From: an uncultured virus (IMG/VR IMGVR_UViG_3300021400_001516)
Taxonomy: Duplodnaviria; Heunggongvirae; Uroviricota; Caudoviricetes
IMG/VR virus record: IMGVR_UViG_3300021400_001516
DNA: 20,000 nt
Strand: one strand, 5' to 3'
The notes beneath the pieces are model-generated. The model was not told the DNA's origin. It searched no databases and worked only from the letters and a program-made list of their open reading frames with translations. The position numbers and the translations under genes are program-made. This document shows positions 9,687-19,463 of this stretch, piece by piece; the first letter of the stretch is position 1; each line of letters starts with the position of its first letter.

Positions 9687-10208
9687 ATGGCTAATATAAT
9701 TGATAAAATTTTTAAGCCAAGATATACAATTTCTGAGTTATTATCCATAGATCAGGGGAGACAGGCAAGAGCTGCAAATTGTAGAGTGACTTTGATAAAT
9801 ACTTTCTATTCCATTAAGGAGGAAACTCTGATGGATAAAGTTAGGTCTTTTTTAAATAAATCTCCAAGAAGACAAGTATTTTATATAACTTTTAAATTTC
9901 AAGTAAAATCAGATACTGGAAATGTACATAACGTATATATCCAGGTTGATCCAGACTTTGATCTTAATAAAGGAGGATCAAATCATGTAAGAATATATTG
10001 TGGTTGTGCAGATTTTAAATATAGATCTGCATATGCCCTTGGACAAAGAAATTCTTTATTTTTAAACGGTAGGACTCTAAGTGATCTAGGTGATTCTTGG
10101 AAAACTGCAGGAACTGGAAAAGCGGGACAATCTTTACTCTGTAAACATGCTTTTGCTTCGCTTAACTGGTTAATGAGTCACTACTCTAACATAATGAGAA
10201 ATATATGA
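9687..10208 (+). CDS. SWIM-type zinc-finger protein
   Basis: YCGCADFKYR ... LCKHAF (CxC...CxH) preceded by predicted beta strands. Confidence 0.75.
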   Translation: MANIIDKIFKPRYTISELLSIDQGRQARAANCRVTLINTFYSIKEETLMDKVRSFLNKSPRRQVFYITFKFQVKSDTGNVHNVYIQVDPDFDLNKGGSNHVRIYCGCADFKYRSAYALGQRNSLFLNGRTLSDLGDSWKTAGTGKAGQSLLCKHAFASLNWLMSHYSNIMRNI

Positions 10209-12952
10209 GTAAAATTCTGGCTATATCAGATATTCACATTCACGATTATCCACAGAGAAACCCAAGCGAAAAATATAGATTATATCAAACTAAATTAGTA
10301 ACTCAAAATATTTTAGAAGTAGCTCAACGAGAGGGGACTGAGATTCTTGTAATTGCAGGAGATGTTATGGATAAGTGGAACCCCCGTCCGTATGTGCAGG
10401 CGGAGATTAAACTTTTCCTTGATACTCTCATGTCTTATTTTAAAGAAGGTTACATTATTTGGGGAAATCATGATCAAGATAATAAAACTGAAAATTCTGA
10501 TTTCATAGATTCATGTTTGGCTGTAATGCTTCCTCCTAATTTATATTATGCTGATATGAAGGAGATTAATATAGATGGGTGTAGGATTGGATTTATGAAT
10601 TGGAGACCTAAGTTTGACTTATCGTGGATTCAAGGAAAACTTGATATTCTCTTCACTCATGCTACCATATGTTACAGTGATACAGATCAATTTACGAGTC
10701 AGAAATTAGATGAAAGTAAGTTTGATCTTGCTATATGTGGTGATATTCATAGACCTGCATCGAAGGGGAAGTATGTTAGTATTGGAATTCCACAAAGATG
10801 TAAGATGGGTGACGGAGAAGATAGCACCGGTATTATTCTAGATACTTCTACTAAGACTTGGCAGTGGGTAGATTTAAACCCTAACAAGAATCTTATGAAG
10901 TTTCAGTATACAAATAAACGTGATCAAGAAGGATGGGATCCAAATACAGGAACTTGGAATGTATATAAGCCAGATAATTTAAGTATTTCTGGAGGTATTA
11001 GAGATATTAAGATACCTGCATGGGAAGAAATTAATAAACTGACGGATCAAATAATTTCCTTAAATGGTCTCGAAGCTATTCATAGTGAGGTTCTCAAGAA
11101 TATCCAAAATCGTGAATCTCTGGAGGTTGATTTTGATTTTGTTTTAACTCATTTTCACTGTAAAAATTGGAGAAGTATTGATGATTGTGATCTTTACTTT
11201 GACGATCTTGATAGAATTCTTATTACGGGGGAAAATGGTTCTGGAAAAAGTAGTCTCTTAAGTGCTATACGATATGCTTTTATAGAAAATAGGAGTGTTA
11301 AAGATTTCTTACAATTTGGTACAAAGGAATGTGAGGCTACAGTTGAGTTCGTTTATCAAGGCAATCAGTATAAAATTGAACGTGGATATAAAGGACGTGG
11401 AGGTTATACTAAACTTTGGATGAACGGGGAAGAACAAAAAGCCAATTCTAAAACTGATCTTGACGAGGATATTCATACCAGATTTCCTTTCATAGATTAT
11501 ATGGATGTTTATTTCTTCGACTCAGATCATCATAAACTTATTGGTGGAATAACTCCTGAAAGAAAGTCTGAGATCGTTTCCAAGTTCTATAAGATGGATA
11601 AAATTGACTTGTATAATGAAGCAGCTCAATTATTATTCTCAAAAGAAAAAGAGGAGATAGATCGAACCAGGGGAAATATCGAAACGGGGAAAGAATTACT
11701 GAAATATATAGAAGGTAATCTTGCTAATCTTCACGTTCCTTCGCTAAGTGAGGCAGATCTCCAAAAGAAAAAACAAGAAGGTATCGTACTTCAAAGTAAG
11801 TGGAGAACTTGGAATACTTACATGACCCAAACAGCTAATTATCAAGCTAGTATAAAACTCTATAGAGAAAAAGTTACTGATCTTGAAAAACAAATTAGCG
11901 GATTTAGAGATGCAGCTCTTCTTCAATCGGAAATTCAAAGTTATCGTGATAAAATAACTTGGATACAGGGAGAAGTTCAAAAGCTTCAGGCTATAGAAAC
12001 TGAAGGTAGACAAAAAAGAGCCGAATTTGATAATATTAAAAGTTCTGGTATCTGTAGAGCATGCGGTAGACCTCTTGATAATCAGGAAGAAAGAAATGCA
12101 AGGCTTCAAGAATTAGATAAAGAACTACAAGATCTTACTATCAGGTGGACTACTCAGAATGACTATATTAAGTCTCATATAGGCAATCCTTCTAAAGTCA
12201 TAGAGGAATGTAATACTGCTATGGCAAGGGTTATGTCTGAGAAGAGTATTCAGGATAGAACTAGAAATGAACTCTCTCAAGCTAGAGTTAATGTAACTAG
12301 GGAAGAGAATAATCTTAAAAACTTAGGTCCAGCTCCCGAGAAGGTAGAACTTCCTCAGGGATTTATGGATGAGATGAGTAAGATAGAAACTTCTTTAGCA
12401 GAGTGGGCTCAGTATAATAAACTTCAGAGCGATAAGGCCTATAATGAAGGTCAGGTTCAGAAATGTGAAAATTACCTGAGAACCTTGCAATCTCAGTCTC
12501 AAAATCTCCAAGATTATATTAGACTTACCGGCCCTACGGGTAAAATTTATGAAGAAATTATGTCTCGTCTCGCCAGTCAGTTTAGTGATAATCAGGTAAT
12601 CTATAAAGTTGAAAGATCTACTTTTAGAAAGAAGGAACACTTAGATCTCTCATCTTACTACTTGAATAACGGTAATGAAGTTTCTTACCAGGCTTGTAGT
12701 AGTGGACAGAAAACTATTCTTGATATAAATTTCCTTAGTAAAATTGTAACAAGGATGGGACTCCTAGTAATGGACGAATTCTTAAAACACCTCGATGCTA
12801 AGAATCATGATATCTGTATTGACATGTTGAAGGAGATGAATATTGGTTGTATTCTTCTCAGTAGTCATATGGAGTCTGTTCCTGCTTTTAATAATAAATC
12901 TATAACTCTTGAACTTAATGAGAGTGGTGTATCTAAAATTCAAATGAAATGA
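10205..12952 (+). CDS. Fused Mre11/SbcD nuclease - Rad50/SbcC ATPase (gp47-gp46-like)
   Basis: Phosphoesterase motifs SDIH, AGD, GNHD, TH, GDIH; Walker A GENGSGKS (11228-11251); coiled coil with CRAC hook (12053-12064); signature CSSGQK; Walker B/D-loop LVMDEFLKHLD; H-loop SSH. Confidence 0.92.
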   Translation: MSKILAISDIHIHDYPQRNPSEKYRLYQTKLVTQNILEVAQREGTEILVIAGDVMDKWNPRPYVQAEIKLFLDTLMSYFKEGYIIWGNHDQDNKTENSDFIDSCLAVMLPPNLYYADMKEINIDGCRIGFMNWRPKFDLSWIQGKLDILFTHATICYSDTDQFTSQKLDESKFDLAICGDIHRPASKGKYVSIGIPQRCKMGDGEDSTGIILDTSTKTWQWVDLNPNKNLMKFQYTNKRDQEGWDPNTGTWNVYKPDNLSISGGIRDIKIPAWEEINKLTDQIISLNGLEAIHSEVLKNIQNRESLEVDFDFVLTHFHCKNWRSIDDCDLYFDDLDRILITGENGSGKSSLLSAIRYAFIENRSVKDFLQFGTKECEATVEFVYQGNQYKIERGYKGRGGYTKLWMNGEEQKANSKTDLDEDIHTRFPFIDYMDVYFFDSDHHKLIGGITPERKSEIVSKFYKMDKIDLYNEAAQLLFSKEKEEIDRTRGNIETGKELLKYIEGNLANLHVPSLSEADLQKKKQEGIVLQSKWRTWNTYMTQTANYQASIKLYREKVTDLEKQISGFRDAALLQSEIQSYRDKITWIQGEVQKLQAIETEGRQKRAEFDNIKSSGICRACGRPLDNQEERNARLQELDKELQDLTIRWTTQNDYIKSHIGNPSKVIEECNTAMARVMSEKSIQDRTRNELSQARVNVTREENNLKNLGPAPEKVELPQGFMDEMSKIETSLAEWAQYNKLQSDKAYNEGQVQKCENYLRTLQSQSQNLQDYIRLTGPTGKIYEEIMSRLASQFSDNQVIYKVERSTFRKKEHLDLSSYYLNNGNEVSYQACSSGQKTILDINFLSKIVTRMGLLVMDEFLKHLDAKNHDICIDMLKEMNIGCILLSSHMESVPAFNNKSITLELNESGVSKIQMK

Positions 12953-14298: not shown

Positions 14299-14351
14299 AA
14301 AGTTCCGGTAGATATACGAAAACTATCTACCGGTTCTTCATTTTTTTTTTT
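14299..14351. terminator. Terminator hairpin between convergent genes
   Basis: CCGGTAGATA 14305-14314 / TATCTACCGG 14324-14333, with an A-run upstream and a T-run downstream. Confidence 0.7.
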
Positions 14352-14598
14352 ACTTTTTGTTTTTGTTAAAGATTCCCTCAACTTCTTCAGGAGTTAATTC
14401 GAGAGTTACTCCTTTGATTCCAGTCTTAACTAGTTCCTCGAGGGCAGTATCAACTTCCTCCGGCGGAATCTGACTAGGAACCCTCCTTTTTATTGTACAA
14501 ACAATCTCTGTTCCATTATATTCGACTCTAACATAGCCGTATTCTCCGTTAGGATTCTTAAAATCCTGTTGTTTACTAGGATGCTTCTTTCTAGGCAT
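14350..14598 (-). CDS. Small hypothetical protein (82 aa)
   Basis: ATG start with its own CCTTATATAC motif on the minus strand at 14631-14640; converges on the terminator. Confidence 0.7.
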   Translation of the reverse strand: MPRKKHPSKQQDFKNPNGEYGYVRVEYNGTEIVCTIKRRVPSQIPPEEVDTALEELVKTGIKGVTLELTPEEVEGIFNKNKK

Positions 14599-14654
14599 AA
14601 TATTAAAAAATTAATAAATGTTAATAATACGTATATAAGGTTACTTCAGGAGTG

Positions 14655-14755
14655 AAAAAAATAGGTCCTGCCTTCTCAGGTGAGACCCACTTTGAAAAAA
14701 AACTGGATTAAAATTGGACTAAAATTGCTTTCTATTATCAGCCTATATATAAGAG
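14655..14755 (-). ncRNA. Candidate small RNA cassette (promoter motif, 11-nt tandem repeat, terminator)
   Basis: Minus strand reads CTCTTATATAT (14755-14745), CAATTTTAGTC/CAATTTTAATC repeat, then GTGGGTCT..CCT-GAGA-AGG..GGACCTAT plus T-tract; no ORF. Confidence 0.4.
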
Positions 14756-14807
14756 TTCTAAGGGTAAAGAATTCTTCTGAAGATTATATCAAATCCTTAT
14801 AGGTACA

Positions 14808-16322: not shown

Positions 16323-17727
16323 TATGAATTCAGGAATTAACAATGTAGATTTATTACTGGGATGTTTCTCGCCTTATGTATTTTCACAGGCAAAAGAAGC
16401 TATTTACGATTTAAAGTACTATTTTGATACTAATCCTGCAACTTCAGGAAATCCTATAATATCAGAATTAGTAAAGGCTATCAGAGACTATGATCTGGAT
16501 GCAATTGGAATACCGCTATTTAATAGTATTTTTGCTAGGTGCCAATTATCTCCGGCAGAGGGACAGCAAATTCTAAATCGAGTAGTAGAATATAAAAAAT
16601 ACTCGAAAGAACAAATGCTGCCCGTAAAAAAGTATGTTTCTGATGTTGTTGCTAGTGTCTGGTTATCAAAGGCGGAGAGGTATCAAAATAGTCCTTCAGA
16701 TTATATAAATTACATTAAAGGAATAAATCTGAAAAGCTCAGATAGGGAAGGGCTGAGTTCAATAAATTTTAATGATCTTGATATAAATTCAATCTTAAAA
16801 CAGGAAAGTGATAATATAGTTCAAAGTAAGTTTGATTTTATAAATAGGTCTTTTCCCAACGGTGGATATCCGAGAAGTTCAATTATTATTGTAAGTGCTC
16901 CTCCGGGTGTAGGTAAATCATTGCTCTTGACGGAAGAAACTTTATGGATGGCTCTTCATGGAACTAAGGTTTTGTATGGTATCTTTGGTGATATCGGAAT
17001 GAGGGACATGTTGATAAGAATGTGTGCCATCTATAGTGGGTTTTCTTTTAATGAGACTAATCGAAGACTTCCAGAGCTATATAAAAGTCTTAGGGATGCA
17101 TTAAGAGGGAACTTTGAAATATCCGTTAATCCAGCAGGACAAGTTAGTGTTGAAGAATTTGTAGAATTTTCAAAGAATTCTCCTGCGAAAGTTATTGTAG
17201 CAGACTATGATAGTAACCTGACGATGGAAGCTAAATCGGACTCTATGTACGATCTTTTTGGAACTATGTATCAGAAGTTTACTGAACTTACTGCTGAACC
17301 TTATAACAAACTTCTTTTTGTGGCAAGTCAACCTAAAATTGTCGCTTGGGGAAATTCAGTGATAGGTTTGACGGACATTGGTGAAAGTTCTAGAAAACAA
17401 CATGCGGCTGATATGATCATTACAAAGGGCAAAGAGGTTAATAGTCCAAACCATCTTAGTGTAATAAATATTCCAAAAAATCGTCGCGGTGAAGTTGATC
17501 TTCAGGCATACTCAATACGTCTTAGTAATGGTAGAACTAAGATTGTACCTAGGGCTGTTTATCAAAATCTTCTTCAGATTCCTGAAAAAAGAGAGTATCT
17601 TGACAGTGAAATTGATATGATGATAGATGGATGGAGAAAATCTCAAGGAAATATAAATGCTGCTGTAGAAAATCGTATGAATCAGCAACAACAAAGACAG
17701 GGACCTTTTCCCTTTCCGATGAGCTAA
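16312..17727 (+). CDS. dnaB: Replicative DnaB-like (SF4) helicase
   Basis: Walker A APPGVGKS, VADY, ASQ, GESSRKQHAAD, arginine-finger KNRRG. Confidence 0.85.
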   Translation: MSYNMNSGINNVDLLLGCFSPYVFSQAKEAIYDLKYYFDTNPATSGNPIISELVKAIRDYDLDAIGIPLFNSIFARCQLSPAEGQQILNRVVEYKKYSKEQMLPVKKYVSDVVASVWLSKAERYQNSPSDYINYIKGINLKSSDREGLSSINFNDLDINSILKQESDNIVQSKFDFINRSFPNGGYPRSSIIIVSAPPGVGKSLLLTEETLWMALHGTKVLYGIFGDIGMRDMLIRMCAIYSGFSFNETNRRLPELYKSLRDALRGNFEISVNPAGQVSVEEFVEFSKNSPAKVIVADYDSNLTMEAKSDSMYDLFGTMYQKFTELTAEPYNKLLFVASQPKIVAWGNSVIGLTDIGESSRKQHAADMIITKGKEVNSPNHLSVINIPKNRRGEVDLQAYSIRLSNGRTKIVPRAVYQNLLQIPEKREYLDSEIDMMIDGWRKSQGNINAAVENRMNQQQQRQGPFPFPMS

Positions 17728-17758
17728 AAATACCCCCGTTTTAGGGGTATTTTTTTTT
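17726..17758 (+). terminator. Rho-independent terminator
   Basis: AAAAATACCCC-loop-GGGGTATTTTTTTTT immediately after the helicase stop. Confidence 0.9.
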
Positions 17759-17790
17759 CCGTCTGAAAAGGCCTAAAAAGCCTTATATAT

Positions 17791-17972
17791 AGAGAGAGTT
17801 AGGAGAAGTTCTTAACGAATACTGAAAATACCGGAAAACCCATATAATTATAAATCCGGCAGAAAGTAGTTAGGAATAATATCTATCTCAACGAACACTG
17901 AAAATACTAGAAAACCTACATGATTATAAGAGCTAGTAGAAAGTAGTTGAGATGGAAATCTCTCTTTTTTTT
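17791..17972 (+). ncRNA. Structured ncRNA 1 containing two tandem copies of one module
   Basis: CCTTATA at 17781; terminal AGAGAGA/TCTCTCT stem plus T-tract; two modules 76 nt apart with compensatory changes. Confidence 0.75.
17809..17956 (+). repeat. Two-copy imperfect direct repeat (17809-17876 and 17882-17956)
   Basis: Consensus AACGAAYACTGAAAATACYRGAAAACC...ATTATAA...CYRGYAGAAAGTAGTT. Confidence 0.9.
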
Positions 17973-17995
17973 GTTCCCCTCAAAACCTTATATAT

Positions 17996-18153
17996 GAAAT
18001 TAAAAAAAAATATGTTGCCCGTCGCGGGATTCTTTCATCCCGCACCCCCGAGAGGAACTTCAATCCCACATTCATAGGCGACCTGATATCGGTCGTGGAC
18101 GACGCTCCGCTACTTTCCCGCCCGGGATCTCGAAGTTCCTCTCATTTTTTTTT
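17996..18153 (+). ncRNA. Structured GC-rich ncRNA 2
   Basis: CCTTATA at 17986; hairpin GCGGGAT/ATCCCGC; 12-bp stem 18050-18061/18132-18143; internal hairpins; T9. Confidence 0.7.
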
Positions 18154-18171
18154 CGCCTTATTTTCTTATAT

Positions 18172-18290
18172 ACAAGATTGATTGAGTTGGTCTCTGAACA
18201 AGGTCTTATAAACCTAACGTGACTTGTAAAAGTATTCTCCCCGTTGTAGTGTGGGTGAAGAAGACATCTTGATCAATCATTATTTTTTTT
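18172..18290 (+). ncRNA. Structured ncRNA 3
   Basis: TCTTATA at 18164; 11-bp terminal stem 18176-18186/18268-18278 with G-U pairs; two internal hairpins; T8. Confidence 0.65.
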
Positions 18291-18310
18291 GTCCCCTAAA
18301 AACCTTATAT

Positions 18311-18378
18311 ATGACTGAAATTTATATTATTGTGATGGAACAGCGAATGACTAAGATAAAAATTCGCTGTTCTTTTTT
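18311..18378 (+). ncRNA. Candidate short sRNA 4
   Basis: CCTTATA at 18303; unpaired 5' segment, then perfect 11-bp hairpin 18338-18348/18362-18372 plus T6. Confidence 0.55.
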
Positions 18379-18437
18379 ATTCTTTTCAAATCCCCCTGTT
18401 TTCTTATATTGGATATAAATTTTAAAGTTTAAAGATT

Positions 18438-19088
18438 ATGGCAGAAATTACAATTACGCAAGCTTTGAGTACTCTTAAGGTATTAGAGAAAAGACTTAAG
18501 GCAAAGTTAGGAGTTTCCGATAACGGTAGACGTACTTCAAGTGCTAACTTAAAGTTGGTAGCTGTATCACGTGGTTCACACCTGAGGGATCCTTATACTT
18601 CCTACAAAGAAGAGGATTTCATTGCTACGGCTAAATCTTCTATGCAGTCAATTGAAGATCTTGATGAAAGAATTATTACCATTAAAAATGCTATTGCTGC
18701 TAGCAATGCGGTAACGATGGTCAAGATTGCAGGGAAGGAGATGACTGTACAAGAAGCTATTATCAGGAAACAATACTCTGAGCTCAGAAAGCAAAAAATC
18801 GAAGCTTATAAGGCCGAACTAAAGCGTGCGAGGGAGGAGTTCCAGGAGGTGATTGATGAAAATCGATCATACGCAGAACGTCTTGCCAACGGAGAGAGCT
18901 CAGACTCTAAGAAGTTTAAGGATGCTGAAGAATTTGTCAGCAATACCTATGCTGCTTCTTTAATCGATCCCTGTGATCTACAGAACAAGATTGAGAAGAT
19001 GGAGCAGGACTTCGAAGATTTCGTTGCCAATATTGACTTTGTACTTAGTGAGTCCAATGCGACTACTAAGATTATTATACCCGATTAA
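18438..19088 (+). CDS. Coiled-coil protein resembling the DIP1984-like family
   Basis: ITITQALSTLKVLEKRL, AIAASNAVTMVKIAGKEMTVQEAI, LIDP, IDFVLSESNATTKI, with internal duplication of the SNAxT and TxxxA motifs. The family assignment is from recall and needs an HMM check. Confidence 0.7.
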   Translation: MAEITITQALSTLKVLEKRLKAKLGVSDNGRRTSSANLKLVAVSRGSHLRDPYTSYKEEDFIATAKSSMQSIEDLDERIITIKNAIAASNAVTMVKIAGKEMTVQEAIIRKQYSELRKQKIEAYKAELKRAREEFQEVIDENRSYAERLANGESSDSKKFKDAEEFVSNTYAASLIDPCDLQNKIEKMEQDFEDFVANIDFVLSESNATTKIIIPD

Positions 19089-19108
19089 AAAAAATAGTTC
19101 TTAACCGG

Positions 19109-19378
19109 AAACACTCAGAAATAACGCCATCTTTTATCTTGGATGTTAAATTAAGATAATCATTAATAGTACAGCATGTTAATGAAGAACTTATAAGTGT
19201 AAAAGTTCTTAGTATCTTAAAGCTCAAGGATAAAAGATGAAAGTTGAAAGCTCAAAGTTTAAGTTATTAAAGCTTAGAGTTTAAGACTTAAAGCTGATAA
19301 AATCCTCGGTTTATGTTTATCATATTCTTGGAGATATGTAGAGGTTTTGCAGTTGTATCCTCGAGTGTTTGTACGAGG
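19109..19378 (+). ncRNA. Structured RNA with heptamer-repeat core downstream of the coiled-coil gene
   Basis: AAACACTC 19109-19116 pairs with GAGTGTTT 19363-19370; several internal stems; repeat tract 19217-19294. Confidence 0.65.
19217..19294 (+). repeat. Degenerate ~7-nt tandem repeat, consensus TNAAAGN, 11 units
   Basis: Unit-final G at 19222, 19229, 19236, 19243, 19250, 19257, 19263, 19272, 19279, 19285, 19293. Confidence 0.85.
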
Positions 19379-19396
19379 CAGGTGTAGGAAAGATTT

Positions 19397-19431
19397 CAGT
19401 GTCGTCATTAGTTTGGCGACACTGTTTTTTT
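19397..19431 (+). terminator. Rho-independent terminator
   Basis: CAGTGTCGTCA / TGGCGACACTG followed by T7. Confidence 0.9.
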
Positions 19432-19463
19432 CCTTTTCCTTCCTTCTCTTTCCTTATAAGAGT

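Follow-up and report, generated by a model that had tools for sequence, protein, structure and literature searches.

The window, the 20,000-nucleotide stretch of DNA analysed here, is phage DNA. Its genes encode topoisomerase II subunits, an SbcC-like nuclease, thioredoxin, a superfamily-2 helicase, and a DnaB-like helicase ending at position 17727. The best named relatives of the helicase, at 30 to 35% identity, belong to large phages such as Rhizobium RHph_TM30, Ralstonia RP13, and Yersinia YerA41; other relatives lie on contigs of up to 389 kb, and a close clade comprises 11 helicase clusters at 66 to 82% identity. Sequencing runs that contain this region are, where labelled, gut, bovine gut, or sheep gut metagenomes. 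The source is a large phage of the ruminant gut. Start regions in the window are A-rich, with no evident Shine-Dalgarno motif before the starts, and a HAD-like protein encoded downstream gives a sub-threshold match to a BT0820-type HAD; together, these two features hint at a Bacteroidota host. A related jumbo-phage-like contig (L140; 370,971 nt) is filed in a Mycoplasmatota MAG, which may be a binning artefact or a clue to the host. Elsewhere in the window, a single 915-aa ORF (10205 to 12952) combines a metallophosphoesterase with an SMC/SbcC ATPase, forming an SbcD-SbcC (Mre11-Rad50) fusion. In the intergenic region 14299 to 14807, promoter-like motifs on the minus strand (14631 and 14745) accompany a short ORF on that strand (14350 to 14598), directed against the replication operon.

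At the end of the helicase gene lies a terminator-like hairpin (17726 to 17758, plus strand), consisting of an 11-pair stem (17726 to 17754) and a T run, whose core is identical in L033, the one full homolog of the locus. This hairpin would act as an intrinsic terminator, closing the upstream helicase operon and insulating the RNA described below. A phage-family promoter-like motif, AAAAAG-CCTTATATAT-A, occupies 17775 to 17791 on the plus strand and scores 20.9 bits against a training median of 21.5; transcription would start near 17791 to 17792. The CCTTATATAT motif itself lies at 17781, with further copies at 17986 and 18303. The three window copies score 20.9 to 23.7 bits on the promoter matrix, compared with at most 5.5 bits on the minus strand across 17700 to 18460. 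In three related phage records, with 14 to 26% of their DNA non-coding, 87 of 91 copies of the motif fall between genes, and a start on the same strand occurs within 150 nt in 36 cases, versus 8 for the opposite strand. Because of this intergenic placement and directionality, the motif behaves like a promoter, and we infer that this is its role. Its family-wide form is AA(A/T)N-CCTTATATG, preceded by C-rich and T-rich blocks (91 sites in 740 kb; G001, G004, and G006).

The predicted non-coding RNA is about 180 nt long (17791 to 17972, plus strand), with a closing helix (17791 to 17797 paired with 17959 to 17965) and a U8 tract (17965 to 17972). The closing helix appears in the minimum free energy (MFE) structure and is absent from the centroid, and this 3' end, a marginal helix plus U8, is not among the calls of a terminator scan. 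A T run and the next promoter-like repeat follow at 17966 to 17997 (plus strand), with a second copy, 91% identical, at 18283 to 18314. The 317 bp between these repeats are absent from L033, and the promoter-like repeats seem to be recombination points for variable cassettes. The orientation of the promoter motif and the purine-rich loops of the RNA place it on the plus strand. With a promoter motif ahead of it and a U-tract and fresh promoter motif behind it, the RNA reads as a stand-alone rather than a cis-acting element, as the original prediction had held, and 17791 to 17972 is likely transcribed alone. Two of seven RNA runs (X15 and X17) yielded no contig over 17854 to 18186, contigs being silent on absence, strand, and level. 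The prediction had further stated that no ORF lies downstream, which holds in the window but not in L033, where an ORF with its own promoter motif lies about 150 nt past the U-tract.

That ORF, together with the marginal closing helix, fits a cis-acting tandem aptamer that, in the manner of a riboswitch, would control whether transcription continues past the U-tract into the next gene, and tandem aptamers are common in riboswitches. Against this, a separate full-score promoter motif stands between the U-tract and the ORF in both the window and L033, and in the window the 317-bp cassette is inserted after the U-tract. We consider this the least probable of the readings weighed here.

The segment 17791 to 17972 is a tandem of two 76-nt arms, each built as stem, internal loop, and stem. 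A direct repeat (17810 to 17853 and 17886 to 17929) is 84% identical at a spacing of 76, and a second (17861 to 17888 and 17938 to 17965) has a spacing of 77. Each arm has an outer stem, P1, of 5 to 11 bp, an internal loop of 12 by 7 nt, an inner stem, P2, of 6 bp, and an apical loop of 21 to 22 nt. Arm 1 (17809 to 17876, plus strand) pairs 17809-17816 with 17869-17876 in P1 and 17829-17834 with 17856-17861 in P2, leaving 17835 to 17855 as the apical loop. Its internal loop reads GAA (17817 to 17819), a patch UACU (17820 to 17823), and GAAAA (17824 to 17828) on one side and GAA (17862 to 17864) and AGUA (17865 to 17868) on the other. Arm 2 (17882 to 17956, plus strand) pairs 17882-17892 with 17946-17956 in P1 and 17905-17910 with 17933-17938 in P2, with the apical loop at 17911 to 17932. 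Its internal loop reads GAA (17893 to 17895), a patch CACU (17896 to 17899), and GAAAA (17900 to 17904) opposite GAA (17939 to 17941) and AGUA (17942 to 17945). Tandem repeat, stems, and loops thus have the sequence and coordinates originally claimed. The inner stem, which had been given as CCGG/CCGG, is present but probably extends to 6 bp, UACCGG/CCGGYA, with an A·C cell in two of four arms.

The MFE fold contains both outer and both inner stems. On the plus strand the fold is more stable than all 200 shuffles (z = -3.42), and the minus strand is nearly equal (z = -3.15). Of the 63 core columns, 14 differ between the two arms of the window, and 8 of these lie in stems. Among the pairs affected, three are altered on both sides, two single changes repair a pair, and none is broken, so that all eight stem substitutions keep or repair pairing, as expected from the claim of selection on RNA structure. 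When eight transitions were placed at random (200,000 trials), all 11 core pairs remained Watson-Crick in 0.1% of trials and were kept in 4.4% with G-U allowed. Across four arms (window plus L033), 86.8% of cells pair, compared with 26 to 45% in slid registers, and 6 of 17 pairs are altered on both sides; 42 of the 63 core columns are invariant. The covariation among the four arms comes almost wholly from one divergence between arm 1 and arm 2, and hence from few independent events. These comparisons show, at the level of sequence, selection for pairing in both arms, and the predicted RNA fold is well supported. The wobble sites are tied, with two U-G favouring the plus strand and two A·C cells, which become G-U on the minus strand, favouring the minus; G-U pairs therefore do not decide the strand, contrary to the earlier claim that they favour plus.

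The loops had also been described as conserved. Among the four arms this is true of GAA, AGUA, and the apical-loop sequence AUUAUAA, all of which are invariant, but not of AAAACC, which is degraded in L033. The two apical loops could form a duplex of 9 to 10 bp with each other (-5.5 kcal/mol), which 1.2 to 1.9% of shuffles better.

L033 was found among 40 metagenome pattern loci and has the same flanks as the window; in the other 39 loci the stems are absent. The RNA is also covered by contigs from runs X3 and X11, which have 16 to 24 differing letters per piece, and a contig from X17 enters arm 1. Pattern scans of IMG/VR gave no matches, and none of 88 stretches had both stems; among 21 further IMG/VR stretches the best model score was 21.9 bits, with stems broken. 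With blastn, only short chance matches were seen in 50,697 phage records, and no match was seen in plasmids. The exact pattern did not occur in 401 genomes around G009, and loci anchored on the helicase (1 + 10 viral, 1 genomic; all 36 to 48% identical) have no copy of the RNA downstream. A model search (R1) of 11 records returned 14 weak matches (best E value, 0.011), none with the motif on inspection, and a loose GAA...AGUA descriptor gave 70 matches in 740 kb of three records, none of them like the arms. Within the collections searched, the RNA seems restricted to a single clade. In a distant relative (L135, 11300 to 11420), the extended promoter and GAGAGAG start are kept (80% over 49 nt) and are followed by a different, hairpin-rich sequence.

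No Rfam family matches 17791 to 17972 at gathering thresholds or at E values of ≤10, and ARAGORN calls no tRNA or tmRNA. Glycine, lysine, and yybP riboswitches, the L1 stalk, and hammerhead and hairpin ribozymes were considered as likenesses and gained no Rfam support. The segment has neither the rod-like hairpin with a central bubble of 6S RNA nor pseudoknot repeats ahead of a ToxN-like toxin, and it gives no Rfam match for 6S RNA or type III antitoxins. By these tests it is not a tRNA, 6S RNA, or type III antitoxin. A mimic of the last, whose repeat would be cut by and neutralise a host ToxN-like endoribonuclease, would suit the layout of promoter, tandem repeat, and terminator and the A-rich linkers. 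Type III antitoxin units are pseudoknots of 34 to 57 nt, and the unit here is a 76-nt element with two nested stems rather than a short pseudoknot. No Rfam antitoxin matches, and the next genes give no toxin or PADLOC match. Although phage PhiTE provides a precedent (PMC3475682), we regard such a mimic as very improbable. The arms share with phage RNA decoys such as the pseudo-ToxI of PhiTE a stand-alone, repeat-built form, a place in a variable region, and a plausible role in counter-defence, but they bear no likeness to ToxI or to CRISPR repeats, having a larger nested two-stem unit and a tertiary motif. RNA anti-CRISPRs are another class of phage RNA decoy. No phage RNA resembling that of 17791 to 17972 was found in the literature (open-licence PMC and bioRxiv), although the motif could be present in supplements to large RNA screens such as virus-wide candidate lists, and the main text of PMC10085705, on permuted RNAs, mentions neither T-box nor loop E. 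The segment is a real, undescribed structured phage RNA.

We next consider the internal loop. GAA, AGUA, and the closing C-G pair are invariant in all four arms. In the MFE structure, UACU pairs with AGUA by Watson-Crick pairing. Arm 2 of L033, which has AUCA after GAA, is unable to pair with AGUA, indicating that this pairing is not conserved and that a bulged-G reading is better. Comparison of the arms thus shows GAA/AGUA to be a bulged-G (loop E, S-turn) motif, predicted to stack on the outer stem, which bears out the earlier assignment.

Four of the 19 internal-loop columns vary, and three of these four fall within the four bases after GAA, a clustering with P = 0.016 over 19 columns and P = 0.067 over the 12 columns outside the S-turn. 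The patch reads UACU, CACU, UACU, and AUCA in the four arms, giving three distinct patches. AUCA lies in arm 2 in L033 and in arm 1 in the 23-letter end of a single contig from run X17, suggesting patch exchange. Read from the first base after GAA (offset 0), the triplets are UAC, CAC, and AUC (Tyr, His, and Ile), all ending in C; at offset 1 they are ACU, ACU, and UCA (Thr, Thr, and Ser), each followed by G.

The original prediction instead read the INTERDIGITATED strands as T-loops, with UGAAA and AGAAA interdigitating as a double T-loop that clamps tRNA elbows. The same kinds of pentamer, AGAGA and UGAAA or UGGAA, do occur in our T-box set as well, and AGAGA is present in arm 2 of L033. However, only seven to nine bases are unpaired on the 3' strand, where the AGAAA pentamer shares its last A with the invariant AGUA. 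The 5' pentamer begins with U in three arms but with A in arm 2 of L033, whereas U-A closure is typical of T-loops (PMC4810234). Elbow contact is, moreover, unspecific without prior contact, according to PMC7583486. A double T-loop is quite improbable, and we rate it low.

The position of the patch invites comparison with T-boxes. Our set comprised 30 T-box loci from 12 genomes, many of them orthologs; 11 loci were scanned for codon position, one transporter was left out, and position was scored for the 10 with a clear downstream gene. In 28 of 30 T-boxes, (N)1-3-AGUA lies opposite GAA-(N)4-6; in 24 of these 28, AGUA is preceded by three bases. The cognate codon starts at offset 0 after GAA in 3 of 10 loci and at offset 1 in 7 of 10; it is followed by a purine in all 10 and ends in C in 5. 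The arms resemble the Stem I specifier loop in having an S-turn of GAA and AGUA stacked on a helix, three purine-rich bases (GAA or GAG in the arms) before AGUA, and a variable, codon-sized patch directly after GAA. They differ from it in that the strand order is reversed, the GAA strand is 4 to 5 nt longer (9 versus 4 to 6), a 21- to 22-nt loop caps the arm where the K-turn would sit, and there are two copies. The S-turn of Stem II offers a second likeness, in which a single hairpin carries GAA in its 5' strand and AGUA-G in its 3' strand, an arrangement seen in 4 of 30 T-boxes under a strict filter; the reversed strand order fits Stem II, as would any S-turn. Unlike Stem II, the loop of the arms also bears the variable patch and GAAAA, and there is no IIA/B pseudoknot.

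The segment 17791 to 17972 is not a T-box. The T-box model RF00230 gives no match at its gathering threshold (93 bits) or at E values of ≤10, and no T-box sequence of the GGTGGNACC type is present in the segment by comparison with the T-box set. UGGA at 17953 to 17956 was ruled out as a T-box bulge, as it lies within a conserved stem. The arms also differ from T-boxes in having no elbow clamp, K-turn, or antiterminator and in not being a leader; the next genes, phrog_1491 and the HAD-like protein, stand behind their own promoter motif and include no cis-regulated amino-acid gene. By analogy, the RNA may nonetheless function as the portion of a T-box that reads the anticodon does. The earlier guess of tRNA binding falls with respect to elbow clamping but survives in the form of anticodon reading, from the match between the patch position and the T-box codon site.

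Our best reading is a trans-acting, two-armed phage RNA with two pockets that would read tRNA anticodons, to which we assign a probability of about one in three. The S-turn would present the patch as that of T-box Stem I presents the specifier, directly above which it sits in the structure described in PMC7583486. Pairing between the two apical loops would keep the arms next to each other, allowing one arm to latch, with its S-turn face, the codon-anticodon helix of the other. PMC7583486 also reports that the Stem II S-turn of T-boxes latches the codon-anticodon helix at its minor groove and imposes a C at the third position and that a U following the codon carries a penalty of only 2.4-fold when this latch is present. 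A reciprocal latch would explain both the tandem build and the C-ending triplets at offset 0, although the fixed C may simply be inherited, given the many invariant core columns. The bound tRNAs might be protected from a host defence that targets tRNAs, or kept back while it acts, and swapping of the patch between arms might let phages change specificity. Conflict between phage and host over tRNA-Tyr and tRNA-Lys is documented (PMC11555353). Phage tRNAs that counter retron-Eco7 and PrrC, described in the same source, could share the purpose of surviving tRNA-targeting defence, tRNA-Tyr included, but 17791 to 17972 is unlike them in not being a tRNA and in that it would bind tRNA rather than replace it. 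The full proposal, a stand-alone anticodon reader with a swappable codon patch and reciprocal S-turn latching, evolved apart from T-boxes and serving as a programmable tRNA sponge or shield, is more tentative.

Several observations temper anticodon reading, which draws on four full arms and one 23-letter contig end. The reading frame is ambiguous, as the purine-after-codon rule of T-boxes favours offset 1. The longer GAA strand and the lack of elbow or 3'-end contacts also count against it. The phage itself uses the Tyr and Ile codon boxes heavily (277 Tyr and 313 Ile AUU plus AUC among 5754 codons counted), so tight sequestering of these tRNAs would hurt the phage. To our knowledge, Bacteroidota is a phylum without T-boxes, and a probable host of this kind hints against anticodon reading. 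We know of no specific anticodon reading by non-coding RNA other than in cis-acting T-boxes. If true, anticodon reading by a free phage RNA, with specificity set by three patch bases that vary from arm to arm and strain to strain, would mean that phages and hosts contend for tRNAs by way of RNA as well, and would offer a small scaffold for targeting chosen tRNAs.

Nearly as probable, and likewise tentative, is a bivalent protein decoy, in which the S-turn, A-rich loop, and AU-rich apical loop would imitate the RNA that a host protein normally targets, with the patch as a tolerant spacer. The protein could be a ribonuclease of a defence system, a regulator, or a protein of translation or the ribosome. 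The invariance of AUUAUAA in the apical loops is consistent with such a decoy, tandem repeats suit multimeric proteins, and the cassette sits within a variable array of promoter-flanked units. The sarcin-ricin loop, in contrast, has the other AGUA-GAA order and a GNRA cap, which the arms lack. No candidate protein, known binding motif, or Rfam likeness was found, and a decoy explains the fold equally well but leaves unexplained the confinement of the three-base change to the patch. S-turn grooves contact protein as well as RNA (PMC7583486), and a phage RNA that mimics a defence RNA is described in PMC3475682. Should the RNA bind protein instead, it would nonetheless be a structured phage RNA not described before, clearly folded and with a possibly traceable origin in a duplicated promoter.

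This origin is suggested by the promoter and 5' leader (17755 to 17808, plus strand), which, when aligned to the arms, resemble a degenerate third copy. Global alignment to arm 1 scores 38, compared with a shuffle mean of 19.8, and none of 2000 shuffles is as good; for arm 2, 1.6% of shuffles are as good, the segment limits having been chosen by eye after the likeness was noticed. As the promoter and leader align to the arms above shuffles, the arms may have originated in a promoter region that was duplicated, although both now score at most 3 bits on the promoter matrix, where the 5th percentile of real sites is 16.9. Any T-box likeness of arms with such an origin would be convergent.

The alignment would also fit a promoter-derived repeat that functions as DNA binding sites or as a 6S-like promoter-mimic RNA titrating polymerase or a regulator. 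AAAACC-like and UAUAA-like letters occur in the apical loops, CCGG and CTAG are palindromic and hence paired dyads in DNA too, and the locus adjoins the replicative helicase; 6S RNA, at about 180 nt, is similar in length to 17791 to 17972. Yet the low promoter score of the arms and the degraded AAAACC of L033 argue against this reading, outer-stem covariation and purine-rich non-canonical loops are unexpected for a DNA site, and the RNA is two-armed rather than rod-shaped, with no 6S match in Rfam. We consider it unlikely. The remaining probability falls to a ribozyme or other roles.

Other structured cassettes lie nearby. A GC-rich folded cassette at 17996 to 18152 (z = -4.54), with 12-bp arms (18050-18061 and 18132-18143) followed by a T run, has its own promoter motif and lies inside the 317 bp between the direct repeats that L033 lacks. 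It has no Rfam match, and variants occur in runs X3 and X11. At 18438 to 19432, a 216-aa phrog_1491 protein is followed by 340 nt of strongly folded non-coding sequence (z = -6.39) with a nearly identical counterpart in L033, and one contig of RNA run X15 spans both (18395 to 19389). The family phrog_1491 is labelled tail fiber, probably wrongly. Among phage records, 741 contain homologs, and the one in Vibrio phage Chester lies within a tRNA cluster, with a 365-nt gap behind it. The phrog_1491 protein and the folded stretch are a candidate for a widespread pair of protein and RNA.
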